This document shows, one piece after another, positions 1,349 through 33,892 of a stretch of DNA of 64,000 bases (position 1 is its first letter; the number at the start of each line of letters is the position of its first letter). The stretch is from Candidatus Latescibacterota bacterium (lineage in GTDB: Bacteria; Latescibacterota; UBA2968; UBA8231): NCBI GenBank assembly GCA_965205655.1, contig CBDBIJ010000110.1, forward strand, positions 35,784 through 99,783, in the 5' to 3' direction. The notes under the pieces were generated by a model that was not told where the DNA came from, did not search any database, and saw only the letters and a program-made list of their open reading frames with translations. Made by a program: the position numbers and the translations under genes.

Positions 1349-1370
1349 CGTCACTTGTACTGCTTAAAAC

Positions 1371-1447: not shown

Positions 1448-1465
1448 CTTCGGCGTGTATGTGTT

Positions 1466-1542: not shown

Positions 1543-1592
1543 GTGGAGACCTCAGATCTGTTCCGGCGCGGAAGAAAAATAAGCCGAAGTCC

Positions 1593-3385: not shown

Positions 3386-3388
3386 CGG

Positions 3389-8620: not shown

Positions 8621-9130
8621 CTACTTCAGCGCCGCGAGCCTGTCCCGAGCCTTGCCCGCGAAGCCGCTCTTGGAGTGCTCCTTGGTAACCTGGCCGTAGT
8701 AGTCAGTGGCCTCGGCTTTCTTGCCGATCTTCTCGTAGCATTGCGCGATGAAGAACTTCTGTTTCGCTACATTGGGTCCCTTCGGGCTCTTGGCGACCGC
8801 CTTCTTGAGGGAATCGATCGCCTTGCTGAGCTTGTCCTGGCTCGGATAGCGCTTGGCGCCCTTGTAGTAGAGCTTGTCGAGGACCTGGTCCACGGCGCCG
8901 CGCACGCCGGCGACCGTCACCGTCTTCTGCAACTGGAGCGATTCCTGTTTCACCATATCGTCCACCTGGGTCCATATGGTGTTCATCCAGTCCTCGTCGA
9001 AGGCCTTCGATTTTGACTGCTCAGTACCAGCGGCTTCGGTCGCTGCCTCCTTTTTCTCTTCCAAAGCGCTCGTGGAGATGGCGCTCAATGCGATAAACGA
9101 TGCCGCGAAAGCGAGTGCAAACAGTTTCAT
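8621..9130 (-). CDS. small secreted Lys-rich protein with TPR-like C-terminus (hypothetical)
   Basis: Signal peptide 'MKLFALAFAASFIALSAIS'. SD GAGGAGGAGGG upstream. More AT-rich than its surroundings. Confidence 0.6.
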   Translation of the reverse strand: MKLFALAFAASFIALSAISTSALEEKKEAATEAAGTEQSKSKAFDEDWMNTIWTQVDDMVKQESLQLQKTVTVAGVRGAVDQVLDKLYYKGAKRYPSQDKLSKAIDSLKKAVAKSPKGPNVAKQKFFIAQCYEKIGKKAEATDYYGQVTKEHSKSGFAGKARDRLAALK

Positions 9131-10841: not shown

Positions 10842-10851
10842 TGCGCAGAAA

Positions 10852-11808
10852 TTAGTTGGCATTTAGACAGGTCGGATGAGGCGGTTGAATGGTGTAGTTC
10901 CATTGCGGCAAGATCGCGTCGTGTTGAATCTCGATCTGGCGGTAGAGTTCCGTGCTGATCTTTTTGCCGGTGTCGTAGCGTTTGCGGTTGAGGGTGGCAT
11001 CGACCGTCAGGCCGGTCTTTGTGGTGGTGGTGCGCAAGTAGTTGAGGATGAGCGCATAGGACTCCAGCGGCACCCCGGCCCAGTTGAGGCTGATGAAACT
11101 GAAGAGGCGGTGGTCGATGGGATTCCACTTGGAGGCTCCCGGCGGATAGTGACAGACCGTGACCGGCAGAGAGTAGCTGTGCACCAGCCGCTGGGACAGA
11201 CAGTATTTCCACAGGTGCGATTGCGCGCTGTTACTGCCGCCGGTATCGCAGAGGATGAGCAACTCGCGCATATCGGGGTGATGATACCAGCCGTAGGTGG
11301 TTAGCCAGGTTTCGATGGCGTCGACGGCGAATTCGGCGGTGTCGTGAGAGGTGCCGACGACGACCGTACCGGCGTTCCTCTGCGGGTCGTAGATGCCGTA
11401 GGGCAGGGCCACGCCAAAAGACTGAGAGCGAAAGTCGTGGGTGAGCACCTCCCGCCCCATCCAGCACCAGGTTTGCCCGGGGTTGAGGAACAGACCCACC
11501 AGCTCGCGTTTCTTGCTGTCGACGCTGATGACGGGCTGGCCCCGGTCCTCAAAGCTTGCCTTGATGGCACTGAGATGACGAAACTGCTGGTCGCGCTGCG
11601 GATGACGGGTCTCCCCGATGCTCTTGCGGTTGCGCTGCAGCGAAAAATTGAGTCGCTTGAGGCAGGCGGCCACGGTGTTCGGGCTGGCGGCGACCCCTTC
11701 GGCGGCCAGCGTCTTGCTCACGGAGCGCGTGCTCTTCCTCGACCACTTCAACCCGGTCATGGGATCACCGGCCGTGTCGTCGACCAGCAGCGCCTCGATT
11801 CGGCTCAT
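10852..11808 (-). CDS. ISAzo13-family transposase, catalytic C-terminal part
   Basis: 'GDPMTGLKWSRKSTRS', 'HPQRDQQFRHL', 'PVISVDSKKRELVG', 'ILCDTGGSNS', 'VCHYPPGASKWNPIDHRLFSFIS' match the ISAzo13 (Rhodopirellula-type DDE) family. Confidence 0.85.
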   Translation of the reverse strand: MSRIEALLVDDTAGDPMTGLKWSRKSTRSVSKTLAAEGVAASPNTVAACLKRLNFSLQRNRKSIGETRHPQRDQQFRHLSAIKASFEDRGQPVISVDSKKRELVGLFLNPGQTWCWMGREVLTHDFRSQSFGVALPYGIYDPQRNAGTVVVGTSHDTAEFAVDAIETWLTTYGWYHHPDMRELLILCDTGGSNSAQSHLWKYCLSQRLVHSYSLPVTVCHYPPGASKWNPIDHRLFSFISLNWAGVPLESYALILNYLRTTTTKTGLTVDATLNRKRYDTGKKISTELYRQIEIQHDAILPQWNYTIQPPHPTCLNAN

Positions 11809-12547
11809 GAGTTTTTTTTAATGCCGGTCGCCCGGCTCCCACAGCGCGGACGCGATCTATGGAAACGCCACCGCTGTGCAATTCCTGCCGTCCCCGAGCC
11901 ACGGTCTTGACGTTGAGCCCGGTCCAACCCGCGACGATGGTGTCGCCGCCGCGACCCAGACGCAGCGACTCGAACCCGGCATACAGACGCCGCTGCTTTT
12001 CGTTGAGGGTCGCCAGAAAGGCCTGCAGGTGGGGACGCAGGTCGGCCTCCAGACCGAGGCCCATGAAGGAGACCGCTTCGGCCTGCACCTGCTGCTGGCG
12101 GTGCGCCAGTTGCGCGGAGCCGTCGTGCACCGAGACGTACAGGTACTCGCCGCCGATCTGGTGGCGCAGCACCCGTCCGCGACGATACAGGCTCAACAGC
12201 GCGGCGTGCACCCGCACCCCGAGCACATCCTCCAGCTCGGCGGACACCCAACCGCCAGCCGCCGCGTCCACCAACTGCGCCATCGTCTCCACCAGCGTAC
12301 CATGACGCGAAAACCGGATGCCCGTAGAGGACCACAATCCATGGCCATCCCAGCGTGCGATACGCTCCAGGGTGTAATACCTGCCCGCATGAGAATAACT
12401 GCTGTGATAATCCAGCTGGCGCAGCTTGCGCAGCGCCGTCATCTTCACCGGCGTACCCAGGGCTGCCTTCACCTGTGCCAGGTCGAGCACCTTGCGCGCG
12501 TCGAAGGCCCGCACCAGCTCCTTGGTGGCGTATCGAATCGGTCGCAT
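11765..12547 (-). CDS. ISAzo13-family transposase, N-terminal part (frame change at A8 tract 11812-11819)
   Basis: The C-terminus '..LNEKQRRLYAGFESLRLGRGGDTIVAGWTGLNVKTVARGRQEL...VGAGRPALKK' matches the family N-terminal HTH region up to the conserved GGGRKK position. The downstream part continues in another frame. Confidence 0.7.
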   Translation of the reverse strand: MRPIRYATKELVRAFDARKVLDLAQVKAALGTPVKMTALRKLRQLDYHSSYSHAGRYYTLERIARWDGHGLWSSTGIRFSRHGTLVETMAQLVDAAAGGWVSAELEDVLGVRVHAALLSLYRRGRVLRHQIGGEYLYVSVHDGSAQLAHRQQQVQAEAVSFMGLGLEADLRPHLQAFLATLNEKQRRLYAGFESLRLGRGGDTIVAGWTGLNVKTVARGRQELHSGGVSIDRVRAVGAGRPALKKTHEPNRGAAGRRHGR

Positions 12548-12752: not shown

Positions 12753-15700
12753 TCATTCCCCAGAGAGCAGATCGAGATAGCCTTCATATCTGACGTCCAT
12801 TTCGACGACCTGGCGATAGATGACCGCCGCTTCGTGACGACGTCCCTGGAGATAACGAGTGATAGCCATGTTGAGCCGAATCCCGGCGTTACCCGGCATC
12901 AGTTCCTCGGCTCGCTCGAACACCGCGAACGCCTCGTCGTACTCTCCCCGACGGGCGAGAACGACGCCTTTCGAGTTGAAGGCGTCACCCATGGCGGGGT
13001 CCGCGGCGATGGCCCTCTCGAGCCGCTCTAGTGCCTTGTCCCATTCGTCCTGCTGCAGGTAGCGCACAGCGATCGCGTAGTTCTCGTCGGCCGATTCCGA
13101 GGCGGCCAGAAAGTCGAAGAGACCCTCGTAGGCTTCATCCTGGGCAACGACCTGTTGATACAGAACATCCGCCGTCTTCGGATCCCCCGACAGCTGGTAA
13201 CTCAGGGCCAGATTGAGTTGAAACCCCATCTGGTCCGGATCGAGCTGAGACGCCTGATCGAAGAGCTCACGTGCCTCCAGGTAACGGCCCTGGCGGCACA
13301 GAACGACGCCCTTGGCGTTGATGGCATCGGCGAACTGGGAATCGCTTTGCAGGGCGAAGTCGAACTGCTCCACTGCCTTGTCGAGTGACTGCTGCCGCAG
13401 ATAGCTGACACCCACATCGTAGTATCCCTGGGCATCGCCAACCGTGGCCATAAAGTCGAACAGCTCGGCGTATGAGTCGTCGAGGGCGACGACGCCTTCG
13501 AACATGAGATCGGCGGTCTGGCGCTCGCCCTTCAGGTAGTAGGCCAGGGCGATATTCATGCGGAATCCGTTGTTCTCTTCGAGCTCCAGTGCCTCGCGAA
13601 ACAATTCCAGCGATTGGTCGTATTGTCCCTGCTTCGTCAGGATGACGCCGATGGCGTTGATGGCGTCGGCGTAGTCCGGCTTCATACCCCGGGCGCGCTC
13701 CAGCATCTGGAGAGCTTTTTCCAGATGGTTGGCGCGCAGGTAGGCGACGCCCGCATCGTAGGCGCCGTCGGGCGTATCGAGGGAGGTGACGGCCCCGAGG
13801 GCGATCTGATCGGTCCGCTGGTCGAAGTAGGCGACGTCCCGCGACAGCAGACTGTCGACGGAATCGGGTGCCGGGAGGTCTATCGATACAGCTGGCAGCA
13901 CCGCCGGTTTGTAGGTCTGCAGCCACTGCTGCACATACACTTCATTGATCAGTTTGCGAGCCTTGAGCCGCTTGTATTCGGCCACGCCGTTGCGCCAGGC
14001 GTCGGCGAAGGTGAAACCGAACATCGTCGTTTCAACGGGAATCCACACCCTCCCTTCCCACACCACGTATTCGGCCGAGCTGACGAAATGATCCTCGGCT
14101 CGGTCGACGGGAATGCCGCTGTCGAACATGAGATAGATATGGCCCTTCCCCGGATCGTTGGCCTCGAGGAAGGCGGTATCGATGCTCAGGTTCTCGAGCA
14201 GCGAGGCGTAGAGAACGGTCAGGTCGTCGCAGTCCCCGATCTTCGTGTCGACCCCTTCCTCCTTGTAGAGCAGCTCGCTCGGATACTGGACGGTGTCGAA
14301 GATCGTCTTGTCATCGGAGACGTTGGCGAATGGGGTTTTCTGATCGGCCTGGTAACTCAGACTGTAGACGCCCATGGCGTCGAACAGGACGATGGCCTTG
14401 CCGATGTTCGAGCGGTTGAACTTGCGCGCCAGCAGGCCATCGTATCGTTGCACAAGGCCGCGCGCCATGCCGGCGATGGCCAAGTCGGCGGGGGTCACGA
14501 AAGCGGCTGCCATTCCCTCCACATTCCAGCTGAGTTTTCCCTTGCCGGCGACGTAGACCCGCTCGAGCTGCTTCTCCACGACCTGCTCCCGCCGGTTGCG
14601 GGTGTAGGCAACCTGGACGATCGGTGTCACGAAGTTGTCGAAGTAGGCCTCGGACTCGTTGAACAGGTCCTGATCGAAGGTCACCTTGAAGCTGTACTTC
14701 TCCGTGCTCTGGGGCGGCAGCACAACATTTTCGGTGTGGGGGATGCTCATCATCTTCGGCAACAGAACCCTAACGACGGCCTCGATCGGCCCGGCGGCGG
14801 AGTTGCCGATGACGACATCCAGAAAATCGGTCTCCTCGTAGTGCCGGTACAACGAGCGGAACACCGGGTTCGGCCGAATCGTCGCATCCTTGATTGTGAC
14901 GACTCGCGGATTGTAGGAAAGCGAAAGAGCCGTGTAGTGAGTGGCGTCGAGAATCGGGTGACGCTCGAAGGCGTAGTCGAGCTGGAGAAAGCGATACTTC
15001 ACCCCCAGTCCGAAGCCGGCTGTGGTGGCATCGCCTCGACTCTCCGGTGTGTCGAGCTCAGTCTTGAGTCCAGCCCTCAGAGCAAGCTGGCCGGCGATCC
15101 AGTACTCGGCTCCCAACCGGGCGTGATCGTCGATGTCGGCGGCGACGGTGAGGCCTTCGATCGGCTTGTGAGCCAGACCTATGCGGTACCGGGCTTCGAA
15201 CATCTCCTCGCTCAACCCTCCCTCGTGCTCCACCGAGGTGCCACCGAGGTCTTGGACTGACAGACCGAGCCTGACGCCGTACGGCAGCGGCACGAGCAGA
15301 CCGACATCGAAGCCCGTGCCGGAGGCGTTCATGACCGACGTCCCGTCGAGATCCGCATCCTGGCTGATGTATTTAGCCGTGGCACCGATAGAGGCGTTGC
15401 CGACGTACGGCTTCAGTCGCTGAATGCTGTTCCGGTAGCCGTAGGCGATGCCGAACTTGCTGTGCCCCGACTTGAGTCCGAGACCGCGGCTGACATCGTC
15501 GAAACCGCGGTAAAACCAGTCGATACCGAGGGCGTGGTTGTCTGATACCGGCAGGACGTAGCTCAGATACGACTCGTTGAGTCCCAGGCCGAAACGATCG
15601 GCATAGGACAGGTCGAGCTCCTGACGCTGCAGCGAAGCGATGGCGGCGGGGTTCAGGTTGACGGCGGTAGCGTCGGAGCCCACGGCGACGAAGGCCCCGC

Positions 15701-15857
15701 CCATGCCGATGGCTCTGACCCCCAGATCGGGCTGCTTGGAGGTGGCGGCGGAGACGGGCAGCGAGAGCAGCAGCACGGTCACCGCTGCCGCACTCACGGC
15801 GCGACAGCGCGGTGCTGGATTCGGAATCCCCTTCTCAGTCTTGAGGTATCGAGGCAC
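12753..15857 (-). CDS. fusion protein: PorV/FadL-like outer-membrane beta-barrel + transglutaminase-like Cys-His core + three TPR super-repeats
   Basis: 1034 aa. Signal peptide. 'LGVRAIGMGGAFVAVGSDATAVNLNPAAIA...HYTALSLSYN' barrel. 'GDCDDLTVLYASLLENLSID..GHIYLMF..GRVWIPVETT'. C-terminal ~345 aa of TPR. Confidence 0.8.
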   Translation of the reverse strand: MPRYLKTEKGIPNPAPRCRAVSAAAVTVLLLSLPVSAATSKQPDLGVRAIGMGGAFVAVGSDATAVNLNPAAIASLQRQELDLSYADRFGLGLNESYLSYVLPVSDNHALGIDWFYRGFDDVSRGLGLKSGHSKFGIAYGYRNSIQRLKPYVGNASIGATAKYISQDADLDGTSVMNASGTGFDVGLLVPLPYGVRLGLSVQDLGGTSVEHEGGLSEEMFEARYRIGLAHKPIEGLTVAADIDDHARLGAEYWIAGQLALRAGLKTELDTPESRGDATTAGFGLGVKYRFLQLDYAFERHPILDATHYTALSLSYNPRVVTIKDATIRPNPVFRSLYRHYEETDFLDVVIGNSAAGPIEAVVRVLLPKMMSIPHTENVVLPPQSTEKYSFKVTFDQDLFNESEAYFDNFVTPIVQVAYTRNRREQVVEKQLERVYVAGKGKLSWNVEGMAAAFVTPADLAIAGMARGLVQRYDGLLARKFNRSNIGKAIVLFDAMGVYSLSYQADQKTPFANVSDDKTIFDTVQYPSELLYKEEGVDTKIGDCDDLTVLYASLLENLSIDTAFLEANDPGKGHIYLMFDSGIPVDRAEDHFVSSAEYVVWEGRVWIPVETTMFGFTFADAWRNGVAEYKRLKARKLINEVYVQQWLQTYKPAVLPAVSIDLPAPDSVDSLLSRDVAYFDQRTDQIALGAVTSLDTPDGAYDAGVAYLRANHLEKALQMLERARGMKPDYADAINAIGVILTKQGQYDQSLELFREALELEENNGFRMNIALAYYLKGERQTADLMFEGVVALDDSYAELFDFMATVGDAQGYYDVGVSYLRQQSLDKAVEQFDFALQSDSQFADAINAKGVVLCRQGRYLEARELFDQASQLDPDQMGFQLNLALSYQLSGDPKTADVLYQQVVAQDEAYEGLFDFLAASESADENYAIAVRYLQQDEWDKALERLERAIAADPAMGDAFNSKGVVLARRGEYDEAFAVFERAEELMPGNAGIRLNMAITRYLQGRRHEAAVIYRQVVEMDVRYEGYLDLLSGE

Positions 15858-15868
15858 CTTCAGCGTCC

Positions 15869-17335
15869 CTATGGCTCTTTAATCGTTATCTGCTCGCCGC
15901 CTGAAACCGGTCCCTGTATGGGCGCCGTCTCATTGCCCGGGTAAATGACCTGAACATTGTATGGTCCGGCAGGAGCTCCGAAGATCACCTCGGCCGGGCC
16001 GCTCCCGGGCAAGACCTGTCGGTAGGCCACCAGCACAAGTGAATCCGGTTCGTTCGCGTCGAACAGGCGCACCTGGGCACCGAGACCGAAGAAGTTGTTG
16101 CCTCCCGTCTCGGGACCCTTGCCGCGAACGAGGACCTTGATGAACAGTGAGTCGGGCGTCTCGTTGTGGAGGAGACTGTTGCCAAATCCAAAACCGTTTG
16201 TTCTGTAAATGTCCGGGGCGCCGTCGCCGTCGAAATCGCCCCATCCTGCAGCAAGGTGAGGGGTGAAGACGGCGGCGATTCCCGCCTCCGCTGTGGCGTC
16301 TCGGAAGGTGCCATCGCCGTTGTTGGCCATGAGGGCGTCCGGCTGCTGTTGCCTGTCGGCTCCGGTGGCAAGGTAGAGGTCGAGATTTCCGTCCCCATCG
16401 TAGTCCGACCACGCTGCCATCGACGTCAACCAGCCGGAGCCCACCTCGCGCACATTCGCGGCTTCGCCCACATCGACGAATGTCTCGTCCCCGTCGTTGC
16501 GATACAGGCTGTTGGCGCCGACGTTCGCCACGAAGGCGTCCATGTCGCCGTCGTTGTCGTAGTCCCCCCAGGCGGCGCTCTGGCCGATTTCCTTGTTGGC
16601 GACGGACAGGGCGCAAGCGATCTCGGAGAACAAACCGCTGTCGCTCAGATCGTTGCGGTAGAGGCCGTTCTCCTGCTCTCTGTTGACGACGTAGAGGTCG
16701 AGATCACCGTCGTTGTCGTAGTCGACCCAGTTGAAGCCGTTCGTATCCCGGCGGTCTCCGACGCCCACATCGAGCACCTGAGCAAAGGTGCCGTCCGCAT
16801 TGTTGCTATAGAGCTCATTGTCGTGGTAGTACTTCCCTACATAGATGTCGAGATCGCCGTCATTGTCGTAGTCGCCCCAGCCGGACGATGTCTCATTGCC
16901 GCGCTTGTCCAGGTTGATGGAGGCAAGGCTGCGGCCGACCTCGGTGAAATCAGCGGCCTCGTTCTCGTAGAGAAAATCCTGAACTGAGAAGTCGGTGACG
17001 TAGAGGTCGAGGTCGCCGTCGTTGTCGTAGTCGCCCCAGGCGGCCGACGTGCTGTTGCCGTCCTCGATGTCGATACCGAGTGCGACCGCCGTATCGGTGA
17101 ATGTGCTGTCGCCGTTGTTTCTGTAGAGCTTGTTCGGGGGGATGATCGTTGCGGTGCCCCAATTGGTGACGTAGAGATCGAGGTTTCCGTCGCCGTCGTA
17201 ATCACCCCAGGCGAAGTTCGTGCTGAACAGGCCCGGGTTGTCCACCCCGGCTGCAACCGATATGTCGGTGAGCGTCTGCGCTTGGAGGCCGGCGGCCATG
17301 AGGCCGCAGAGAGCTACCGCTGCGAATCGCCTCAT
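15869..17335 (-). CDS. CRTAC1-like FG-GAP/VCBS repeat protein with ASPIC/UnbV C-terminal domain
   Basis: Start taken at 'MRRFAAVALCGLMAAGLQAQ' (signal peptide). At least 6 'WGDYDNDGDLDLYV' repeats. The ATG overlaps the TGA of the upstream giant gene (ATGA 17332-17335). The 17440 start in the ORF track is an Arg-rich artefact. Confidence 0.85.
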   Translation of the reverse strand: MRRFAAVALCGLMAAGLQAQTLTDISVAAGVDNPGLFSTNFAWGDYDGDGNLDLYVTNWGTATIIPPNKLYRNNGDSTFTDTAVALGIDIEDGNSTSAAWGDYDNDGDLDLYVTDFSVQDFLYENEAADFTEVGRSLASINLDKRGNETSSGWGDYDNDGDLDIYVGKYYHDNELYSNNADGTFAQVLDVGVGDRRDTNGFNWVDYDNDGDLDLYVVNREQENGLYRNDLSDSGLFSEIACALSVANKEIGQSAAWGDYDNDGDMDAFVANVGANSLYRNDGDETFVDVGEAANVREVGSGWLTSMAAWSDYDGDGNLDLYLATGADRQQQPDALMANNGDGTFRDATAEAGIAAVFTPHLAAGWGDFDGDGAPDIYRTNGFGFGNSLLHNETPDSLFIKVLVRGKGPETGGNNFFGLGAQVRLFDANEPDSLVLVAYRQVLPGSGPAEVIFGAPAGPYNVQVIYPGNETAPIQGPVSGGEQITIKEP

Positions 17336-20300
17336 CTGACCACCGCCACTACTTTCTCGGCTTGCTCGCCGGAGGCGGTGACGACGACGATGTAGAGGCC
17401 GCTGGCGACGACTCCACCATCTTCGTCGCGCCCGTTCCATGGTATCGTAAGGCGGCCCTGGCCATAGGGCTGGTCGCGCTTGATGACCCTCTCGAGTCGG
17501 CCGGAGGCGTTGTAAACCCGCACCGTGACATCTGCGGGACTGCTGAGGTCGAAAGAGACGTCAGTGATGGCTCTCAGACCCCCCGCTGGTGAGAATGCGC
17601 GCGGCTGGCAATCGAGGTCTCGGATTTTCGCGGTACCCACAGCGGCCTGCGTATCCACGAACAGGCCGAAGGTGCTCAGTTTCAGTTCCTTTACTGAAGT
17701 GGCCACCTGTTTCAGCGCCGGCTCCGATGTGCCGCCGACCCGTAGCCACTGCCCTTCTGTCAGTTCGAAGATCCCCAGCTCGCTCGGGTTGTGTTCGCCG
17801 AGGTCGCCCAGGTCGTAACGGAAGGTCATGGTCACCGGCTTGCGCAGCGCGCTCTCGCCGATATTCATCTCCCAGGCGCTGCCGACGGGAACCGGGTCCT
17901 CGCCTTGTGACGGTGCGGCGGCAGAGGAAACGGTTTTCCCCGCCGGCTGATCGGCGGCCGGGCGAATGATCACCTCCACCTTACCGATGTCGCTCGGCAG
18001 CGCATTTGGCGGGAAGTAGAGCTCGACGCTGCCCTCCGCGTTGGTCACGGTGCCGCCCGCTGCCGCGTCGGGCAGCTCTCCTGCGGTCTGAAAAGTTCCG
18101 TCGAATCCAGTCTCCGCTCTCTCGCCGAGGACCGAGCGATCGATGACGAACTCGTATTCCGTGAAGGGCCGGAAGCCTCCTTGAGGCGCGAAGTTGACGA
18201 TCGTCTGAGCCGGATCCTCAAACCCGAAACCTGTGATTGGCGTCAGCTCGAAAGGCGCATCCGGGTCCTCCTGTAGATCGACGATACGTCGAGCTCTGAG
18301 CTGGAAGCCGGACTGGTCGGCGGTGGCGACCGGTCCCGAGAATACGATCCGCACTGGGGGGGATGTCACAGACACTCCCTCGGCACCGAATGGTGGATTG
18401 GCTTCGACGAGCGTGGGCAAGTCGGTGAGAAAGGTGAATTGATCGTCGGGTCGATTCGCCAGGGCCCCCCCGAGTCGAGAGCTCACGACCACTTCATAGG
18501 AACTCCCCGAGACGAAATCGACTTCCGGCAGACTGGCTGTAAAAGTCTCGTCGACGTAGATGAACTCACCGTCCTCGAGCGCGATCGGATCGCCACCGCG
18601 GCTCAGACGGATGTTCTGCGAGTTGACCAGGTCGCGTTGCAGCGCGGCGGAAAAGACGATCTCCACACGTCTGGCTCCGGCGGCGATCGAGGTGCCGTCG
18701 GTCGGCGATGTGGAGACGACACTCGGAACGAGCGTCGCGAATCCCAGGCGAGTATCGGTGCTAGCGCGCGGGCCGCCCAACCGGGCGCTGACGACTACGT
18801 CGTACGCCGATCCCGGAATCAAATCGATCTGGGGCAGGCTGATGATGAACTGCTCCTGATCGTACAGGAACTCGTCCTCGGGCAGAGAGAGGGCTGCACC
18901 ACCCCGCGTGACCGTCACGTTTTGGGAGTTTATCAGATCCTCGTCCAACGGATCGGAAAAGGAGAGTCGAACCCGGCGAGGGCCAGCCGTTACCTCGCTG
19001 CCGCTCTCGGGCTCGGTAGAAACCACTTCAGCCACCCGCGTGGCGAAGCCCCAGCGGAAATCGTCGGTTGCTCTCGGACCCGCTACAGAGCGGGTAATCA
19101 CTACCTGATAGGAGGTGCCACCCCGCAAGCGGCCGGCCGCGGGCCCGAATGAGAGGGTACCCGCCTCGCCGTCGAAGACCGGTGCCGTGATCTGCACGGA
19201 CTGACCCTCGCCCAGCAGCCGTACATGCTCAGCTAGCTCTTCATCGTCGATGTCGGTGTCGAAAACGGCTGCGATCGTCCCTTCGAGTGCGGAAACAGCC
19301 GAATCAGCAGCGGCTGGCGCCACGCTCACCGTATCCGGTATCGCCGTCTGGAATGACCACGAAATCGGCTGGCCTGCCCCGAGTGGTCCGCTGACCGATG
19401 AATTGATTTGCACGACGTAGCCACTGCCGACCTGCCAGCCGGTTGCGGGCGCGAATCCATAGCGACCCTCGCCACGATCGGTCGGATCGTCGGCGCGCAG
19501 CTCAAGTGGCACGCCCCCACGCGCGAGGCTGAAGTTGCCGGCGCTCAATTGGTCTTCGTCGAGGGGCACGCTGAACTCGATGACCGCCTCTTCGAGGCCG
19601 ATGGTGACGTCATCGGCCCCCTCGGTAGGTAGCACCGAGACCCGGCTGGGCACGGCCGTGCTGAAACTCCAGCTATAGTCTCCCACTGCCTGTCGCAACG
19701 GACCTCCCACCACCCCCGAAACGACCACCTGGTATTGAGCCCCAGGGCGCAGGCCTTCTGCAGGTTGAAACGACAGCACTCCAGTTGTGGGGTTGTATTC
19801 CTCCTCCGTCGCATCGATGGCGCGCCCCTGCTTGAGGAGCGTCACGCTGCCCGACACTGCCTCTTCGTCGAGCAAGCCGTCGAACCCGATCGATATCGAT
19901 GGATCAGCCGCCGACACCGCAGCGTCGCCGTCGTCCGGGGTCCGTGCGGTAACCCGGGGCACGGCGGTGCTGAACGACCAGGTGAAGTCGCCCTCGGCCA
20001 CCAACCGCAGCGGCCCGGCGAGCGAGCCAGAGATCGTCACGTCGTAGCGGGAGCCTGGCTTGAGCGCTTCGCCAAGATCGATGGAAAGGGTGTTGGACGT
20101 ACCGACGAATAAAGCGTCGGCGACTACTACTGAATCGCCCTCCCGCCTTACCTGCACCGCATCAGCTTCCTCCAGTAGCGACTCGATGAGGCCGCCATCG
20201 AAGGTGGCGATTATGCGCCCGTCATCGATGGCTACGCTCGCGGTTCCGTCCGCGGGCTCGGTGCTCACGAGCTGAGGTACGTTGATGCTGAAATTCCAGG

Positions 20301-23300
20301 ATATGGCGTTCGCCGGGCGATTGCCGGCCAGGTCCTCTACGGCGGCTGACACTTCGACGCTGTACTGCGTCCCTGGCAGGAGACCCCCGGCCGGAGCCAG
20401 GACGACTGTATTGTCATCGGCGCTGTAGAGGGGGGCATCGGCCAGCGCTACAGGTGAATTTCCCGCGGTGATTTGGAAGTTGTCGGCGACGACAGTCTGC
20501 TGATCGATGGGCTCTGAAAAGGTGATCCTGAGCCGTGTCGTCGAATCTGGCACGCCAACGGCGGCGAACCCGGGCGCGGCTGAGCTGACCGCAGGCAGCT
20601 GTGTGTCGACTGAAAACACGCCGGTCGAATCGAATGGCACGAGCGTGTTTCCCTTGATGTCCTCCAGACCCCTGACAGAAACTGAAGCCGCTCCCGACGG
20701 CATGGATTCTGCAACCGTCAGCTCACCGGTCCATGTGAGCCCGGTGTAGCGAACTGTCCGGAACTGGAAAGGCTGTCCGTCGATGGTGGCCTCCACCAGA
20801 GGTTCCACATCTTTCTCCACTCCCGAATGCTCGTCGAGGAACTCGAAGGCGACGGTCACCGTCTGATCGATGCCAAAATTGGTGGTGTCGGATTCGCTCT
20901 TGCTTTTGTTCAGCGTAAGCCTGTCGATAGTCGGCGGGATGACATCGACTATGAAGTGGCTTTCTGCGCTCCAATCGGAACGCGAGTAACCCACGTCCAC
21001 TGTCTGAACAGACCAGAAGTATGTGCCGCTGACCAGTTCACCGACTGAGCGGACCAGATTGTGGCCGGCGTTGCCGGGGCCCAGTGGCAGTTGGCCTGAA
21101 ATGACCGAGTCCCCTTCCGAGGTCCTACCAAGCCGAAGATTGTAGGTGAGGCTCTCCACCGGCGGAGCACCATCGTCCGAGGCGGGAAGCCAGCTCAGGG
21201 TCACCTCGTCGCCTGCGTCCTCCGCCCGCAGTCCCGAGGGGGCGGATGGGGGCACGTTGGAGTTGAGTTGCTGCGCCGTCAGATTGTCATTGACGGCCGT
21301 CGAGGTAGTGGTACCCGAGCCGGACGAGAACAGGTCGAGATCGCCGTCGCCATCGGCATCCGCCAAGGTAACGGCGCTGAAGTCGACCCCGCGCAGAATG
21401 GGAAAAGCGTCGAGCGCGAATGCCGAGTCGGGAGCTGCCTGACCTATCGTGTTTTCATACACCCTGAAGATCTTCTGCTGCTGGCCGATGTTGCCGACCA
21501 TGACGAGGTCGAGATCCTGGTCGTTGTCGTAGTCTCCCCAGGCCAGATCACCCCCCTGGATGCCTGGAAGATCGACGTCGTCTATCTCTGCGTAGGTACC
21601 CGTGCCGTCGTTGGCGTAGATGGCTGTCGAAGGGCCGTCGCTCGCCGTCACGCCTCCGGCGGCGAGATCCAGATCGCCGTCGCGGTCGTAGTCGCCGAAG
21701 GCGAGGTCGCTGGATTCCATTCCGGGGAGATCGTTTCCGGTGTCCGCGAAGCTGACGGAGCCGCTGGCGAGATCGTTGCGATAGACGGTGAAGTCTCGAA
21801 CTCCGTCGGAGCTTACGCCGGTGACGGCCAGATCGAGATCACCGTCGCCATCCACATCGCCGAACACAGATTCGCCATTGTTGAGGCCGGTCAGGTTTAC
21901 GCCGAGGGTGTCGAAATCGCCCGCGCCATCGTTCGCCCAGATCTCGGTGAACGAAAGCTGGGCGCCAGCCTCGGTCGCGCCGCTCTGACCCATCAGAACA
22001 AAATCCAGGTCGCCGTCGTTATCCACGTCGCCCCAATCGACCGAGCTCTCGGACAGGTCGGGTCTGAAGCGGATCGCCACTGCAATCCCGGCGTTGTCGG
22101 TGCCGCCACTGGTATCGGTTCGATACAGGAAGTTCGCCCGGTTGCCGATTGCATCCTCGCCTGTGATGAACAGATCGAGATCGCCGTCGCCATCGTAGTC
22201 GCCCCACGCCAGGTCACCTTCCTGAAGGGAGACGATGTCTGCATCCACAAGCGTCAGCGTGCTACCACGATTGACGTAGAGCAGGCTCTGGGCTTCGCCG
22301 CTGCGATTGAGCCCCATGATGGCCAGGTCGATGTCCCCGTCGTCATCGTAGTCGCCCCAGCTCATGGCCGACTCCTTCAGGTCGCGGATCCGCTGATCCG
22401 AGGAGACGAACCGGGTCACGACGAACGGGTCCTCCTGGGAAAACGCCGACCGGGTGAAGGTTCCGTCTACTGACTGAACGCTCCAGACGTAGGTGTCGGG
22501 TGCCAGAGAGCGGCTCAGCACGTAACTCGTTTCGAACCCGGCATTGCCCTGCCCTACGGACAGCGAGGCTGATACGATGTCTCCCGCGCCAGCCTCGGTG
22601 CCGATGCGGATGTTGTAGCTGATTGCATCCGATTCACCGTCGCTGCCGGGACTCCAGCTGAACAGGGCCCGGGTGCTGGTGACCTCCACGGGATTGAGGC
22701 TCGCAGGCGGGTTTGGGGCCGTGTTGATCGTGGTGACGCCGAGATTGCTGTAGAGAATCGTGCGACTCTCACCCGACTCGTCGACGCCGCTCGTCACCAG
22801 ATCGACTCGGCCGTCGTCATCGTAGTCAGCCCACAAGGCGAGCCCGCCGGCAAGGCCCTCCAGATTCTGCTCGATCGACACGCCGGTAACAGACCCGTTT
22901 CGATTCTCGAACACGTGGGCTTCATAGTCGGAGACGATCGTCCGGCCCGACACGGCCAGATCGGGATCGCCGTCGTTGTCGAAGTCGACCCAGTCGAGCT
23001 GACCGCCCACGGTCTGGAAGGCGTTCAGCGAGAAATCGGTGTCGCGATTGAAGGTGCCGGCGGGCCGGTTGCGGTACAGGTACAATTGGAGAGCGCGGTT
23101 CCACACCTCGTCGTGGCCGGAGATGGCGAGATCGGGATTGCCGTCACTGTCGTAGTCGGACCAGGCGAGAGAGCCCCCCTTTACGAGTGAGTCGAAGGGC
23201 AGGGATATACCGGAGTCCAGGGTCAGAGTTCCGAGTGGATCGTTGACGTAGAACTCGGTGACCCGCCGGATGCCTCCATCGGCGATGACATTCTCACCGG

Positions 23301-24078
23301 AAATGGCGAGGTCGGGATCTCCATCGCTATCGTAGTCAGCCCAGGCGAGGTCCCCGCCATGGACGTTGATGATCGCTTCGCTGTTGAGTTCGTCGAGCCG
23401 CAGGGCCCCGTCCTCGTTCCGGTAGACGTGGGTGAGGGACGTTCCGATCTCCTCCATTCCCGAAACGACGAGATCGAGGTCGCCGTCGGTATCGTAGTCG
23501 ACCCAGCTGAGGGCTGCGTACCGCACGCCCTTGAAATTCGAATTGCCGTCGCCGTCCACCTGGCTAATGTCGAAGGATAGCAATCGATCGGCGCGTTCAG
23601 TGCCCTCTTCGTTCAGGTAGAGGCGCATGCTCTCCTCGCCGTCGTCATCCCAACCGGCGATGGCGAGGTCGAGATCGCCGTCGCTGTCGTAGTCAGCCCA
23701 ACCCAGATCGCCGAAATAGACCCCTGTCAATCGCTGGCTCTGGGTCACGTCCTCGGCGAGTAGTGCTCCGTCATTGCGCAGAACCCGGGCGATGCGTTCA
23801 CACTGGCCGTCGTCGGCGACGACCTCGCCGATGAGTGCCAGATCCATGTCGCCGTCGCTGTCGTAGTCGCCCCACCCCGCCTGCCCCGCCCAGACGCCGG
23901 GCAGCTCGAGTCCCGAGTCCTGCAGGTTCTGAGATTGCGCTTGAGAGGAGACGATGACGACCGTGAGCAGGCTCACTGCGATCGGCCAGATGCGGGCACG
24001 CGAGAGAAGGCGTACGCACCGCGGTGTAGGCAGTCCGCCCAAACAGTATTGCACCGGGTCGACTCGACTGAAGTTCAT
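17332..24078 (-). CDS. giant secreted FG-GAP/VCBS + fibronectin-III + ~10x SbsA/Big_5-type Ig repeats protein with FlgD-Ig / T9SS-type C-terminal domain
   Basis: ~2250 aa. ~20 'W(A/G)DYD(S/N/D)DGD(L/P)DL' repeats and two Fn3-like domains. The tail 'AFSPAGG..ITDVSFDLSSPADVTVRVYNASGRLERVIK...WNGRDEDGGVVASGLYIVVV' resembles FlgD_ig/Por_Secre_tail. Start uncertain (ATG 24078 preferred over TTG 24132). Confidence 0.85.
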   Translation of the reverse strand: MNFSRVDPVQYCLGGLPTPRCVRLLSRARIWPIAVSLLTVVIVSSQAQSQNLQDSGLELPGVWAGQAGWGDYDSDGDMDLALIGEVVADDGQCERIARVLRNDGALLAEDVTQSQRLTGVYFGDLGWADYDSDGDLDLAIAGWDDDGEESMRLYLNEEGTERADRLLSFDISQVDGDGNSNFKGVRYAALSWVDYDTDGDLDLVVSGMEEIGTSLTHVYRNEDGALRLDELNSEAIINVHGGDLAWADYDSDGDPDLAISGENVIADGGIRRVTEFYVNDPLGTLTLDSGISLPFDSLVKGGSLAWSDYDSDGNPDLAISGHDEVWNRALQLYLYRNRPAGTFNRDTDFSLNAFQTVGGQLDWVDFDNDGDPDLAVSGRTIVSDYEAHVFENRNGSVTGVSIEQNLEGLAGGLALWADYDDDGRVDLVTSGVDESGESRTILYSNLGVTTINTAPNPPASLNPVEVTSTRALFSWSPGSDGESDAISYNIRIGTEAGAGDIVSASLSVGQGNAGFETSYVLSRSLAPDTYVWSVQSVDGTFTRSAFSQEDPFVVTRFVSSDQRIRDLKESAMSWGDYDDDGDIDLAIMGLNRSGEAQSLLYVNRGSTLTLVDADIVSLQEGDLAWGDYDGDGDLDLFITGEDAIGNRANFLYRTDTSGGTDNAGIAVAIRFRPDLSESSVDWGDVDNDGDLDFVLMGQSGATEAGAQLSFTEIWANDGAGDFDTLGVNLTGLNNGESVFGDVDGDGDLDLAVTGVSSDGVRDFTVYRNDLASGSVSFADTGNDLPGMESSDLAFGDYDRDGDLDLAAGGVTASDGPSTAIYANDGTGTYAEIDDVDLPGIQGGDLAWGDYDNDQDLDLVMVGNIGQQQKIFRVYENTIGQAAPDSAFALDAFPILRGVDFSAVTLADADGDGDLDLFSSGSGTTTSTAVNDNLTAQQLNSNVPPSAPSGLRAEDAGDEVTLSWLPASDDGAPPVESLTYNLRLGRTSEGDSVISGQLPLGPGNAGHNLVRSVGELVSGTYFWSVQTVDVGYSRSDWSAESHFIVDVIPPTIDRLTLNKSKSESDTTNFGIDQTVTVAFEFLDEHSGVEKDVEPLVEATIDGQPFQFRTVRYTGLTWTGELTVAESMPSGAASVSVRGLEDIKGNTLVPFDSTGVFSVDTQLPAVSSAAPGFAAVGVPDSTTRLRITFSEPIDQQTVVADNFQITAGNSPVALADAPLYSADDNTVVLAPAGGLLPGTQYSVEVSAAVEDLAGNRPANAISWNFSINVPQLVSTEPADGTASVAIDDGRIIATFDGGLIESLLEEADAVQVRREGDSVVVADALFVGTSNTLSIDLGEALKPGSRYDVTISGSLAGPLRLVAEGDFTWSFSTAVPRVTARTPDDGDAAVSAADPSISIGFDGLLDEEAVSGSVTLLKQGRAIDATEEEYNPTTGVLSFQPAEGLRPGAQYQVVVSGVVGGPLRQAVGDYSWSFSTAVPSRVSVLPTEGADDVTIGLEEAVIEFSVPLDEDQLSAGNFSLARGGVPLELRADDPTDRGEGRYGFAPATGWQVGSGYVVQINSSVSGPLGAGQPISWSFQTAIPDTVSVAPAAADSAVSALEGTIAAVFDTDIDDEELAEHVRLLGEGQSVQITAPVFDGEAGTLSFGPAAGRLRGGTSYQVVITRSVAGPRATDDFRWGFATRVAEVVSTEPESGSEVTAGPRRVRLSFSDPLDEDLINSQNVTVTRGGAALSLPEDEFLYDQEQFIISLPQIDLIPGSAYDVVVSARLGGPRASTDTRLGFATLVPSVVSTSPTDGTSIAAGARRVEIVFSAALQRDLVNSQNIRLSRGGDPIALEDGEFIYVDETFTASLPEVDFVSGSSYEVVVSSRLGGALANRPDDQFTFLTDLPTLVEANPPFGAEGVSVTSPPVRIVFSGPVATADQSGFQLRARRIVDLQEDPDAPFELTPITGFGFEDPAQTIVNFAPQGGFRPFTEYEFVIDRSVLGERAETGFDGTFQTAGELPDAAAGGTVTNAEGSVELYFPPNALPSDIGKVEVIIRPAADQPAGKTVSSAAAPSQGEDPVPVGSAWEMNIGESALRKPVTMTFRYDLGDLGEHNPSELGIFELTEGQWLRVGGTSEPALKQVATSVKELKLSTFGLFVDTQAAVGTAKIRDLDCQPRAFSPAGGLRAITDVSFDLSSPADVTVRVYNASGRLERVIKRDQPYGQGRLTIPWNGRDEDGGVVASGLYIVVVTASGEQAEKVVAVVR

Positions 24079-24087
24079 GTGAAATGA

Positions 24088-24116
24088 GGGGAAAACAGCC
24101 GCGCGATTCGCGCGGC
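24088..24116 (-). terminator. terminator-like GC hairpin between the NusG paralog and the giant gene (possible attenuator)
   Basis: Minus strand GCCGCGCG-AAU-CGCGCGGC followed by UGUUUUCCCC, ~10 nt upstream of ATG 24078. Confidence 0.4.
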
Positions 24117-24207
24117 CGCTCCAAGATAGCAAACGCCCGGATGCGCGCCAATCAAAATCGCCGCACCGAGCGGATGCCGGCCGTTCCAGATAGTAGATAG
24201 ATAGTGG

Positions 24208-24789
24208 CTACAGAAGCTCGACGTCCTGCATGTCGACCTGCAAGGCGACCGCTGTGCCGAGCACGGAGACATTCAATACCAGACGAAAGGAGTCCTTACG
24301 CCGGGAGATTTTTCCCTGCACGCCGACGAGAGGCCCCCGAATGACGCGCACCTTGCGACCCCGCTTCAGCTCGGGATAGAGGGTCAGCCCAGCTCCCCTG
24401 CGGCTCGCCACGTAGATGCTGGACAGCTCCTCGAGGAGCTGCTTCTGATCGACGACCTCGATCCACTGCACGAAGTAGCCGCTGCGCATGAGATCGAGTC
24501 GCTGGGACGAATCGCAGCTTCCGAATATGTACCCGGGGAAGAGCGGCACCTCGAAGCTGTAGCGCCGTTGCCCTTTGCGTTTTCGAGGTGTGCTCAATCG
24601 TAGCGGCAGGTAGTGGCGCAGCGATAAGTCCTGCCAGACGCCCGCCGCCTTCTTCTCGCATCGAGGCCGGGTGTGGAAAGCGTACCACGCGCGCTCGGAC
24701 TCGGTTGCGAAAAGACGGGAGGCCTCATCCTCGGGCGCCTCCTCGGTTGCGCAATCGACAGCTGTAGCGCGATTCGTTTCCGTCATCAA
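24208..24789 (-). CDS. NusG-family paralog (RfaH/UpxY-like transcription antiterminator)
   Basis: 193 aa. NGN-type 'WYAFHTRPRCEKKAA...YLPL...PLFPGYIFG' plus KOW 'GRKVRVIRGPLVGVQGKI'. It is not in the canonical secE-nusG-rplK context. Confidence 0.8.
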   Translation of the reverse strand: MMTETNRATAVDCATEEAPEDEASRLFATESERAWYAFHTRPRCEKKAAGVWQDLSLRHYLPLRLSTPRKRKGQRRYSFEVPLFPGYIFGSCDSSQRLDLMRSGYFVQWIEVVDQKQLLEELSSIYVASRRGAGLTLYPELKRGRKVRVIRGPLVGVQGKISRRKDSFRLVLNVSVLGTAVALQVDMQDVELL

Positions 24790-24879
24790 GGCTCTTACGC
24801 AACGTCTGGCCGGCGACTAAGAGAATGGCCTCCCATGGCACCATTGAGGCTCCACAGAAGACCACTCGATCCGAATAAC

Positions 24880-24957
24880 TGGGGTGAGTGACGGGAATCG
24901 AACCCGCGGCCTCCAGGGCCACAACCTGGCGCTCTAACCGACTGAGCTACACCCACC
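24880..24957 (-). tRNA. tRNA-His(GTG) with G-1, CCA encoded
   Basis: Reverse complement G-GTGGGTGTAGCTCAGTCGGTTAGAGCGCCAGGTTGTGGCCCTGG...TTCGATTCCCGTCACTCACCCCA. Confidence 0.85.
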
Positions 24958-25044
24958 ACAAGGCTGCTCGGCGGAAGCATTTCACATCAAAACCGGACCA
25001 CCGTCCAAGCAGTCGAAGACCGTTCTCTCAACACTCTTTGTGAC

Positions 25045-25121
25045 TGGCGTGCCCAGCAGGACTCGAACCTGCGACATTCTGCTTAGAAGGCAGATGCTCT
25101 ATCCAGCTGAGCTATGGGCAC
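25045..25121 (-). tRNA. tRNA-Arg(TCT), CCA encoded
   Basis: Reverse complement GTGCCCATAGCTCAGCTGGATAGAGCATCTGCCTTCTAAGCAGA...GGTTCGAGTCCTGCTGGGCACGCCA. Confidence 0.9.
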
Positions 25122-25390
25122 TTCTCTAACATACAGCGGGACCTGAAGTTACGGCCCGATTCTACTAAGAAACGGTACACCCCTGTCGAATGCAAGAGGA
25201 GTGGGAGTGGCTGATCTGCAGCGAATGGTTTGGTGATCGAAAGCGGTGACAGACGATTCCCAGGGGAGCGCTACTCCGAGCCGCGCGCAGACCTTCCTGG
25301 TCTCATTCTGCTCCATCTTGGCGTAGCCGTTCTTCCCGAACCAGGACATGCTCATCGGGAGGCGGATTCATTTGAGCTGCGGGATATAGC

Positions 25391-25468
25391 TGGTCGGGGT
25401 GGTCGGATTCGAACCGACGACCCCCTGCTCCCAAAGCAGGTGCGCTAACCGGACTGCGCTACACCCCG
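25391..25468 (-). tRNA. tRNA-Pro(TGG), CCA encoded
   Basis: Reverse complement CGGGGTGTAGCGCAGTCCGGTTAGCGCACCTGCTTTGGGAGCAGG...GGTTCGAATCCGACCACCCCGACCA. Confidence 0.9.
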
Positions 25469-27502: not shown

Positions 27503-27840
27503 TCATCTGGGGTCGCGGTTGCCCGCGGCCTCCGTGCGGCCTACCCGGGAGTCGACGAGGCGGACCACCTCTCCTCCCCTATTTGGCCTTGCTCCGGATG
27601 AGGTTTGCCTTGCCGTCGCCGTCGCCGGCGACGCGGTGAGCTCTTACCTCACCCTTTCACCCTTACCGCCCGGCTGACGCCGAAGCGGCGGTTTGCTTTC
27701 TGCTGCACTTTCTGTGGGGTCGCCCCCCCTGGGCGTTACCCAGCATCCTGTCCTGTGGAGCTCGGACTTTCCTCACCCCGACCTGGCGGGCGTCCCGAAG
27801 GTTCCCGCCGGCCGGCAGCGCGATCGCCCGAGCCACTCCG
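27451..27840 (-). ncRNA. rnpB: RNase P RNA, bacterial type A
   Basis: Reverse complement contains GAGGAAAGTCCGAGCTCCACAGG, GGTAACGCC, AGGGTGAAAGGGTGAGGTAAGAGCTCACC, CAAGGCCAAATAGGGG and ACAGAACTCGGCTTACAG. P1 pairs CGGAGTGGCTC (5') with GAGCCACTCCG (3'). Confidence 0.92.
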
Positions 27841-33815: not shown

Positions 33816-33892
33816 TGGTGGGCCCAGTAGGACTCGAACCTACGACCAACGGATTATGAGTCCGCCGCTCTAACCAACTGAGCTATGGGCCC
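33816..33892 (-). tRNA. tRNA with CAT anticodon (elongator Met or, more likely, Ile2/lysidine type), CCA encoded
   Basis: Reverse complement GGGCCCATAGCTCAGTTGGTTAGAGCGGCGGACTCATAATCCGTTGGTCG...GGGCCCACCA. G1:C72 excludes an initiator. C4/C5 in the acceptor stem and the anticodon stem resemble E. coli ileX. Confidence 0.85.

Follow-up and report, generated by a model that had tools for sequence, protein, structure and literature searches.

A conserved operon for a giant propeller and Ig-repeat protein with a type IX-like sorting tail and a PorV-like barrel fusion in a Candidatus Latescibacterota bacterium and related lineages

In secretion by the type IX system (T9SS), PorV is the shuttle for cargo with type-A C-terminal domains and binds them (PMC5562754), and the genes for type-B cargo adjoin those of their cognate PorP/SprF barrels, with PorE, which combines tetratricopeptide repeats (TPRs) and a propeller, bridging to the cell wall (PMC9143113, PMC12618676). 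T9SS is possibly present in phyla of the Fibrobacteres-Chlorobi-Bacteroidetes (FCB) group beyond Bacteroidota, in a list that does not name Latescibacterota (PMC11285876), and we found no paper that combines Latescibacteria with type IX secretion or lists Latescibacterota as T9SS hosts. Other described systems of relevance are the Lap paradigm (PMC3032545, PMC4359373) and the specialised NusG paralogs, which are often encoded by the first gene of, or adjacent to, a long target operon (PMC7819879). Here, we describe a locus of a Candidatus Latescibacterota bacterium that lies in a stretch of 64,000 nucleotides (contig CBDBIJ010000110.1, positions 35,784 to 99,783), referred to as the window. 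It codes for a giant propeller and immunoglobulin (Ig)-repeat protein, a small CRTAC1-like propeller protein, and a fusion of an outer-membrane barrel, a transglutaminase (TG)-fold domain, and TPRs, preceded by a NusG paralog; an earlier note on this DNA had drawn attention to these four genes.

The closest precedent is the linked type-B cargo, PorP/SprF barrel, and PorE complexes of Bacteroidota. As in SprB-SprF and PG1035-PorP-PorE, a large tailed cargo is encoded beside an outer-membrane barrel, TPRs, and a propeller (PMC9143113, PMC12618676), but the barrel here is of the PorV/PorQ family, and the tail is type-A-like (FlgD_ig) rather than type B. Moreover, the barrel protein itself carries the TPRs and, as an addition, a TG-fold domain, the propeller is encoded separately as an FG-GAP protein, the OmpA_C domain is absent, and the hosts are outside Bacteroidota. 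No PorP/SprF or type-B models are among the listed NCBIfam matches of the barrel or the giant-protein tail, and the resemblance is functional or architectural only.

The module is real, is larger and older than the earlier note proposed, and does not appear to be led by the NusG paralog. The layout of open reading frames (ORFs) in the window places all four genes on the minus strand at the coordinates noted earlier (Table 1). The near absence of spacing that had been described holds for the three structural genes, the ATG of the propeller gene overlapping the TGA of the giant gene (ATGA) and the barrel-fusion gene beginning 11 nt past the propeller-gene stop, but not for the NusG-like gene, whose stop is separated from the giant ATG by a 129-nt spacer. 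The three structural genes form a conserved, translationally coupled operon across candidate FCB phyla. When the window proteins were compared by tblastn with 80 fetched loci (phylum names are the labels in the sequence records), the order giant, propeller, barrel was found in every Latescibacterota-, KSB1-, or Zixibacteria-labelled locus with enough flank. The arrangement had been judged not to be a chance neighbourhood, and this is borne out by adjacency and tight coupling of the cargo, propeller, and barrel genes in 47 loci from the three labelled phyla, with a median gap of 5 nt between the giant and propeller genes and 0 nt between the propeller and barrel genes, and with frequent 4-nt overlaps. 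In nearly all loci whose flank is long enough, a giant orthologue is encoded upstream of the barrel gene. In the Marinimicrobia-labelled loci the large-protein and barrel genes are adjacent, a cyclase gene lies upstream of the cargo gene, and a separate small propeller gene was not seen.

Relatives of the fusion protein are present in at least 577 GTDB species genomes (one genome per species scanned). The closest homologues are mostly from Latescibacterota-labelled metagenome-assembled genomes, with some labelled Gemmatimonadetes; identity is 60 to 80% across Latescibacterota-labelled sequences, and P0001 is a 100% match to the window copy. With many loci coming from one phylum and long-range synteny extending down to a PALP gene, the adjacency could be ascribed to the shared ancestry of close genomes, with no functional meaning. 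This reading is already disfavoured and we regard it as very improbable, because the core order survives in KSB1- and Zixibacteria-labelled genomes in which the wider synteny is lost, the pairing of large protein and barrel survives similarly in Marinimicrobia-labelled genomes, and the 4-nt gene overlaps are conserved.

The conserved block is not bounded by the four genes (12753 to 24789), as had been proposed, and includes a gene for a small TPR protein and another for a CHASE2 cyclase. The small TPR gene comes after the barrel gene in nearly all loci, and does so in KSB1-, Zixibacteria-, and Marinimicrobia-labelled ones as well; the cyclase gene adjoins the block in loci labelled Latescibacterota, KSB1, or Zixibacteria, in nearly all of which it and the small TPR gene are found after the operon. 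Both are conserved block members. Further downstream, and in close relatives only, are CpoB-like, BamD, NadD, and PALP genes. In the window, a transposase-bearing insertion separates the barrel gene from the small TPR and cyclase genes. It is missing at the same position in nearly all related loci, where the small TPR gene lies ∼50 to 550 nt past the barrel gene (0.8 to 1.1 kb in L045, L047, and L053), and in this genome the TPR and cyclase genes downstream of it may be uncoupled from the operon as a result. The insertion carries a plus-strand DUF772-family transposase gene (9416 to 10837) and a minus-strand ISAzo13-family transposase gene split in overlapping ORFs (10852 to 11808 and 11765 to 12547), and no convincing terminal repeats were found for it.

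Table 1. Coordinates of the operon, its neighbours, and selected elements, numbered from the first nucleotide of the window
Feature	Position	Strand	Evidence
NusG paralog (NGN + KOW, UpxY-like), 192 aa	24208-24786/9	-	Pfam, NCBIfam, PDB match
Giant secreted protein gene, 2248 aa	17332-24078	-	ORF and domain profiles
CRTAC1-like FG-GAP propeller gene, 488 aa	15869-17335	-	ORF and Pfam FG-GAP_3
Barrel/transglutaminase-fold/TPR fusion gene, 1034 aa	12753-15857	-	ORF, profiles, and structure models
tRNA-Pro, tRNA-Arg, tRNA-His cluster, directly upstream	24880..25468	-	ARAGORN, Rfam
Sigma-70-like promoter motif TTGGCG (-35), N17, TATCTT (-10)	24123..24151	-	Cross-locus comparison
5' leader hairpin and UUUU	24095..24119	-	Sequence reading, RNAfold
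Eight tandem Big_5 Ig-like repeats, giant-protein residues 1158-1997	18088..20607	-	Self-profile search
C-terminal sorting domain, giant-protein residues 2173-2237	17368..17562	-	Pfam FlgD_ig, NCBIfam TIGR04183
Transglutaminase-fold core, fusion residues 442-662; Cys543 codon 14229-14231	13872..14534	-	Alignment, Pfam, Foldseek
Transposase-bearing insertion	9416..12547	both	Pfam, NCBIfam
Small secreted TPR protein, 169 aa, CpoB/YbgF/PorW-like TPR	8621..9130	-	Profiles, synteny
CHASE2 sensor and class III nucleotide cyclase, 918 aa	5621..8377	-	Pfam CHASE2 117 bits, Guanylate_cyc 45.6 bits

The giant protein is organized with a signal peptide, a seven-blade FG-GAP propeller, an Fn3 domain, a second FG-GAP propeller, and a second and last Fn3 domain, followed by Ig-like domains, eight tandem Big_5 repeats, a linker, and an FlgD_ig/T9SS type-A-like sorting domain. 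Profile searches recover FG-GAP_3 in nine stretches, fn3, and Big_5 (234 bits), and a self-profile search finds exactly eight tandem Big_5 repeats; the 13 DxDxDG blades fit two propellers. By inspection, the Sec signal peptide has a hydrophobic segment followed by SSQAQSQ, and an AQxQNL motif after it is kept in orthologues. The last ∼75 residues match Pfam FlgD_ig with 36.6 to 42 bits (cut-off, 27), and Por_Secre_tail (TIGR04183) is passed marginally with 23.3 bits against a cut-off of 23. The T9SS-type tail and the other domains that the earlier note assigned to this protein are recovered.

Distant orthologues of the giant protein are 1,373 to 1,499 aa long. A KSB1-labelled orthologue (L052) has FG-GAP, one Big_5, and FlgD_ig; a Marinimicrobia-labelled one (L060) has FG-GAP and FlgD_ig, with no Big_5 detected; and a Zixibacteria-labelled one (L075) has FG-GAP and one Big_5. 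Since distant orthologues carry one or no detected Big_5, the eight-repeat stalk is an expansion among close relatives. Repeat number also differs at close range. In the sister assembly L084, which is 99% identical and to which the exact match of the NusG paralog (P0112) belongs, the giant protein has 2,345 aa compared with 2,248 aa here (∼97 aa longer), and a repeat stretch of ∼330 nt (19646 to 19974 of the window) aligns twice to L084 (10709 to 17746 of L084 compared), which suggests one extra Big_5 repeat. Over the repeats and the C-terminal part the two are 94% identical at the DNA level, and the difference could be either adhesin-like repeat variation or an assembly collapse. A separate observation concerns the KSB1-labelled locus L052, in which a second cargo-like gene (108 to 3803) lies directly upstream of the FG-GAP cargo gene and codes for a 1,231-aa protein with Fn3 and purple-acid-phosphatase-N repeats and an FlgD_ig/Por_Secre_tail/CHU_C tail. 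In some lineages, then, more than one neighbouring cargo may be served by the barrel fusion.

The small propeller protein has a signal peptide, an FG-GAP_3 match of 170.7 bits in seven stretches that correspond to seven blades, seven DxDxDG motifs, and a short C-terminal beta-rich region, without a sorting tail. Its sole PDB sequence match is CRTAC1 (9etn_A; E = 2.8e-8). The protein had been called a CRTAC1-like FG-GAP/ASPIC protein, and the FG-GAP propeller and the CRTAC1 match hold up, but UnbV_ASPIC is absent from its scans, even at E ≤ 1 on the C-terminal 113 residues. Seven blades with DxDxDG Ca-binding motifs, as in the propellers of CRTAC1 and integrin-alpha, are present in the small protein and in each of the giant protein's two propellers; the undetected UnbV_ASPIC and the bacterial-envelope setting set the small protein apart from CRTAC1.

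The fusion protein consists of a signal peptide, a barrel (residues 47 to 313), a beta-sandwich and TG-fold region (318 to 690), and three TPR modules (690 to 1034). The barrel aligns with positions 13 to 324 of the 326 in the PorV/PorQ family profile NF033709 (E = 1e-23) and its 84.4 bits fall just under the curated cut-off of 90 bits; against the PorV equivalog it scores 28.7 bits (cut-off, 250), and Pfam returns weak matches only (OMP_b-brl, FadL, and UPF0164). A distant homologue, P0105, carries the NCBI name "PorV/PorQ family protein." The barrel is like PorV/PorQ in matching the family profile over its full length, but canonical PorV is a stand-alone barrel of ∼390 aa, and the protein here has ∼720 additional residues, is linked to a single cargo gene, and scores below both cut-offs.

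Several lines of evidence place the middle of the fusion in the transglutaminase-like superfamily. In alignments of 14 to 51 homologues, Cys543 of a GDCDD motif is invariant in 51 sequences, and H573 (GHIY) and E609 (WIPVETT) are at least 90% conserved, so that Cys, His, and Glu appear in order in conserved motifs, as in that superfamily. Among 13 family members, Pfam Transglut_core matches six (best E = 1e-4) and DUF553 five (best E = 1.6e-6). An AlphaFold model of residues 318 to 690 (predicted local distance difference test [pLDDT], 94.4) has a beta-sandwich followed by an alpha/beta core, and in fold comparisons with PDB it matches transglutaminase 2 (TG2) and factor XIII with E values of ∼1e-3, the TG2 alignments spanning ∼400 columns and covering both sandwich and core. 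Because the search with this 373-aa model was dominated by the N-terminal beta-sandwich (complement C3 and ASF1), the core was modelled again alone (pLDDT, 94.4), and its best Foldseek matches are mostly to the TG or the related papain-like fold, including 3isr (a Cytophaga putative cysteine protease; probability, 0.98), LapG, Rad4, PNGase, RavJ, PeiW/PeiP, and TG2. A profile search of the core against PDB sequences gave only spurious LpxC matches (E of ∼0.16). The earlier description as a barrel/transglutaminase/TPR fusion stands for the barrel (near its cut-off), the TPRs, and the TG fold, and the "thiol-enzyme" call is supported at the superfamily level.

The sandwich-plus-TG module has 1,925 representative relatives and is elsewhere joined to TPRs, an NHL-type (ScyF-like) propeller, or PorZ-like segments, which are the domain types that neighbour it at the present locus. 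These combinations in other proteins suggest that it is a mobile domain used in several architectures. In five such proteins (P0241, P0244, P0256, P0263, and P0298) the module is a weak match to the N-terminal ∼300 residues of the NCBIfam model "anti-phage protein ProA" (E = 1e-8 to 1e-14). We found no published description of a fusion of a PorV-family barrel, a transglutaminase-like domain, and TPRs, and no paper pairing PorV with transglutaminase-like; the architecture, with a thiol-enzyme-like domain and TPRs on the same polypeptide as a PorV-family barrel, appears to be new and undescribed.

These features fit a cargo of T9SS style that has its own barrel as shuttle or anchor, together with an accessory NusG paralog, a reading in which we have moderate confidence. 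The giant protein would be exported by Sec and then be directed across the outer membrane by its FlgD_ig/T9SS-type tail, through a T9SS-like translocon encoded elsewhere, to display two Ca-binding, integrin-like propellers on an Ig-repeat stalk. The PorV/PorQ-family barrel, dedicated to this cargo, would receive or hold the C-terminal domain at the outer membrane. As an even-stranded barrel has its two ends on the periplasmic side, the barrel extension, with its beta-sandwich, Cys-His-Glu TG-fold domain, and TPR scaffold, is predicted to lie in the periplasm, where it and the CRTAC1-like propeller may tether the cargo complex, process it, or both. Such tethering would resemble that of type-B cargo by PorP/SprF barrels and the TPR-plus-propeller protein PorE, and the small TPR protein and the CHASE2 cyclase would probably add assembly or signal control. 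The NusG paralog could act as a processivity or antitermination factor on a transcript of more than 11 kb, in a subset of Latescibacterota-labelled lineages. In the literature on FG-GAP or CHASE2 with T9SS, neither FG-GAP nor CHASE2 is mentioned among the top-ranked papers.

Several observations weigh against a dedicated T9SS-style pair. The 64-kb window contains no T9SS core gene in Pfam and NCBIfam scans of 48 larger ORFs, some of 100 to 199 aa, chosen by a screen of G+C content at third codon positions. This agrees with the earlier note; the description of the module as self-contained is not borne out, as the translocon is not encoded in the unit and the C-terminal domain implies a T9SS encoded elsewhere. 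The Por_Secre_tail score is at its threshold (23.3 versus 23) and the PorV/PorQ score just under its own (84.4 versus 90), and the Zixibacteria-labelled orthologue L075 is without FlgD_ig at E ≤ 0.001. The predicted periplasmic topology comes solely from the even-stranded-barrel rule, and the barrel's connection to tail-bearing cargo is one of genetic linkage. As for the TG-fold domain, the window copy gets no Pfam Transglut_core match, the Foldseek E values of the core are modest (best, 7e-3) with TM values of 0.3 to 0.4, and the subclade P0081 to P0083 has lost the His, with P0082 also having Gln in place of Glu, so that catalysis may be dispensable.

A further point is that the block in close relatives adjoins housekeeping envelope genes (CpoB-like and BamD), so that the barrel fusion could be a component of general use in the envelope, not one dedicated to this cargo. 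In such a case the fusion would be a housekeeping outer-membrane protein, either a general shuttle for FlgD_ig cargo or a tether between outer membrane and cell wall, with the propeller proteins merely its most conserved neighbours or clients. The breadth of the fusion family, the high identity among its Latescibacterota-labelled members, and the CpoB-like, BamD, and NadD genes after the block in close relatives are in keeping with this role, as is the precedent in Bacteroidota of one PorV serving all type-A cargo (PMC12618676). However, adjacency to FG-GAP cargo persists across phyla at 35 to 45% identity and the linkage to BamD and CpoB does not, and the frequent start/stop overlaps suggest co-expression with particular partners. 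We consider a general envelope role possible but doubtful, and favour a barrel dedicated to its cargo.

The fold of the TG core also raises the possibility that the locus acts in the manner of the Lap system, with the TG-fold domain as a LapG-type protease cleaving the giant adhesin or a retention segment, and with the CHASE2 cyclase providing an inside-out signal. Structures of LapG rank among the core's best matches by fold (4u65_E, E = 8.9e-3; 4fgq), and, as in LapG/LapD/LapA, a Cys-containing TG-fold domain (predicted to be periplasmic here, with Cys, His, and an acidic residue), a giant repeat protein or adhesin, and a cyclic-nucleotide enzyme are encoded together, here across phyla (PMC3032545). 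The likeness to LapG is one of superfamily-level fold only, though, and is equally good to non-LapG members. The block has no soluble LapG, the TG domain being tethered by fusion to the barrel, and it has no LapD-like cyclic di-GMP receptor, type I secretion system, or RTX adhesin secreted by one. Moreover, the cyclase is of class III (cyclic AMP/cyclic GMP) and is not a diguanylate cyclase, and a LapG-type cleavage motif was not identified, no search having been made for one. Lap-like release is accordingly improbable in our view, somewhat more so than a general envelope role, and a T9SS-style cargo with its own barrel is preferred.

The NusG paralog is an accessory, lineage-specific, and optional upstream neighbour of the operon. 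It has the expected NGN and KOW domains, the former scoring 38.9 bits (Pfam NusG; cut-off, 22.2) and the latter 20.3 bits, just under its cut-off of 22.3. Among NCBIfam models, UpxY (NF033644) is the best, with 72.5 bits against a cut-off of 100, ahead of RfaH (41.8), LoaP (33.3), and NusG (28.5); all four scores are below the curated cut-offs, although the alignments to UpxY, RfaH, and NusG cover the full profile length, and PDB NusG is matched with an E value of 1.4e-6. Its earlier designation as a NusG/RfaH/UpxY-like factor therefore stands on domain order and best family, with the UpxY score short of its cut-off, and it is of the specialised UpxY-like kind that typically adjoins long target operons (PMC7819879). 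An iterative profile search over all loci finds it only in the window and eight other loci, where the giant gene is always the next one downstream and in the same orientation; these are 9 of the ∼19 close-clade loci that could be evaluated, and more than 20 distant loci are all without it. Members of the wider family with 51 to 55% identity sit in other contexts: one relative with 51% identity heads a polysaccharide cluster with glycosyltransferase and epimerase genes, an UpxY-like context, and others have unrelated neighbourhoods.

The content of the region from tRNA-His to the operon promoter varies. In at least 10 other close-clade loci, the slot between tRNA-His and the giant gene (loci among L001 to L051; window equivalent, 24789 to 24880) holds either a ∼160-aa RfaE-II/TagD-like cytidylyltransferase with the motif VFTNGCFDxLHxGH or nothing recognisable, and one locus carries the cytidylyltransferase and the NusG paralog together. 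A tRNA-His is also upstream in L002, L004, L007, L013, L015, L022, L025, L031, L032, L036, and L051. The notion that the 12-kb region is a genomic island at tRNA-His was rejected because the operon is syntenic across phyla and has conserved flanking genes, with only the short slot varying; no integrase gene was found next to the operon.

Downstream of the paralog, cross-locus comparison, and only this comparison, brought out a sigma-70-like promoter motif (Table 1), generic promoter and terminator consensus scans having given nothing useful in the region. Its match is the sole one in the 64-kb window, compared with 0.01 expected by chance, and the motif lies 25 to 72 nt before the giant ATG in 16 of 18 distinct close-clade loci examined, nine with the NusG paralog and seven without, in surrounding intergenic DNA that is unalignable. 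As the motif is unique in the window and is kept whether or not the paralog is present, the operon very probably has its own promoter, with the NusG paralog outside it. The earlier note had instead taken the four genes as one NusG-led transcription unit forming a self-contained surface-display module, and the shared strand, the position of the paralog immediately upstream in nine loci, and the habit of specialised NusG paralogs of standing first in or adjacent to their target operon (PMC7819879) are consistent with this. Yet the conserved motif lies between paralog and giant gene and is found also in paralog-free loci, about half of the close relatives and every distant one lack the paralog, its homologues turn up in unrelated contexts, and the translocon is not encoded. 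Because of the promoter-like motif downstream of the paralog, kept with or without it, a single NusG-led unit is unlikely, only an adjacency due to shared ancestry being less likely. The four-gene arrangement is thus conserved in relatives for its three structural genes and not for the NusG paralog, and the proposal of a dedicated elongation factor within the transcription unit is not upheld.

Compared with UpxY, RfaH, and LoaP, the paralog is alike in its NGN and KOW domains, in its best match to UpxY, and in being encoded beside a long cell-surface operon (PMC7819879), and it shares with UpxY the presence of a relative (at 51% identity) at the head of a polysaccharide cluster. It differs in scoring below all cut-offs, in lying upstream of the operon promoter motif, and in being present in only some lineages, and no recruitment element for it was identified. 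The 44-nt leader of the operon folds with −24.0 kcal/mol (RNAfold) and contains a hairpin, GCCGCGCG-AAT-CGCGCGGC, followed by UUUU, which resembles a terminator or a stabiliser. A role of the hairpin as a paralog-specific attenuator was considered and rejected, as its sequence is unconserved and similar hairpins occur without the paralog (L022 and L031).

Other parts of the window code for additional candidate surface functions and unrelated features. A 588-aa protein (36494 to 38260) with choice-of-anchor D and ASH/HYDIN Ig-like domains is a probable further surface or secreted protein, with no sorting tail detected at the thresholds used. A minus-strand cluster (52835 to 57369) codes for a 933-aa protein O-mannosyltransferase resembling TMEM260, a GT2 glycosyltransferase, an LPG_synthase_TM protein, and a CBM9-like protein. 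In humans, TMEM260 adds mannose to Ig-like IPT domains, and that the products of this cluster might glycosylate surface proteins with Ig repeats, the giant protein among them, is pure speculation. Beyond tRNA-Met (33816 to 33892) the window diverges from L084 (1 to 1072), with a DnaG primase in the window and a phage-type integrase in L084, suggesting that one of the two genomes has an integrative element at this tRNA gene. An ORF of 1,312 aa that is UvrA-like and has extra ATPase regions shares 85 nt with a 391-aa ORF containing a UvrA DNA-binding domain (57374 to 62403); a frameshift may have split a very long gene of the UvrA class, or the two may represent a fusion of duplicated UvrA. Class A RNase P RNA (279 bits; 27448 to 27839) overlaps the annotated 5' end of a 377-aa ORF (26369 to 27502), the true start of which is therefore probably further downstream.

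Nearly all work on type IX secretion has been done in Bacteroidota, and this operon provides a concrete, cross-phylum pair of cargo and barrel in uncultured Latescibacterota-, KSB1-, Zixibacteria-, and Marinimicrobia-labelled FCB lineages. As a candidate for the major adhesin of these abundant marine and sediment bacteria, or for the structure by which they attach to particles, the giant protein is an obvious choice, and the patchy NusG paralog illustrates the recruitment of a specialised elongation factor beside a pre-existing long operon. Should the barrel fusion act as shuttle or anchor, the pairing of a specialised shuttle with a neighbouring cargo gene would widen from PorP/SprF to PorV-family barrels, and enzymatic processing on the periplasmic side would be indicated. 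More speculatively, and with no great expectation that it is so, the four FCB phyla could share an undescribed envelope machine, in which the fusion of PorV-family barrel, periplasmic Cys-His-Glu TG-fold enzyme, and TPR scaffold is a docking and processing station dedicated to the integrin-like double-propeller protein, whose retention at the surface or release is governed by the CHASE2 cyclic-nucleotide sensor. Such a machine would be the counterpart, in the T9SS era, of Lap-type inside-out control of adhesins, and its shuttle, with an enzymatic activity built in, would represent a new class for the T9SS.

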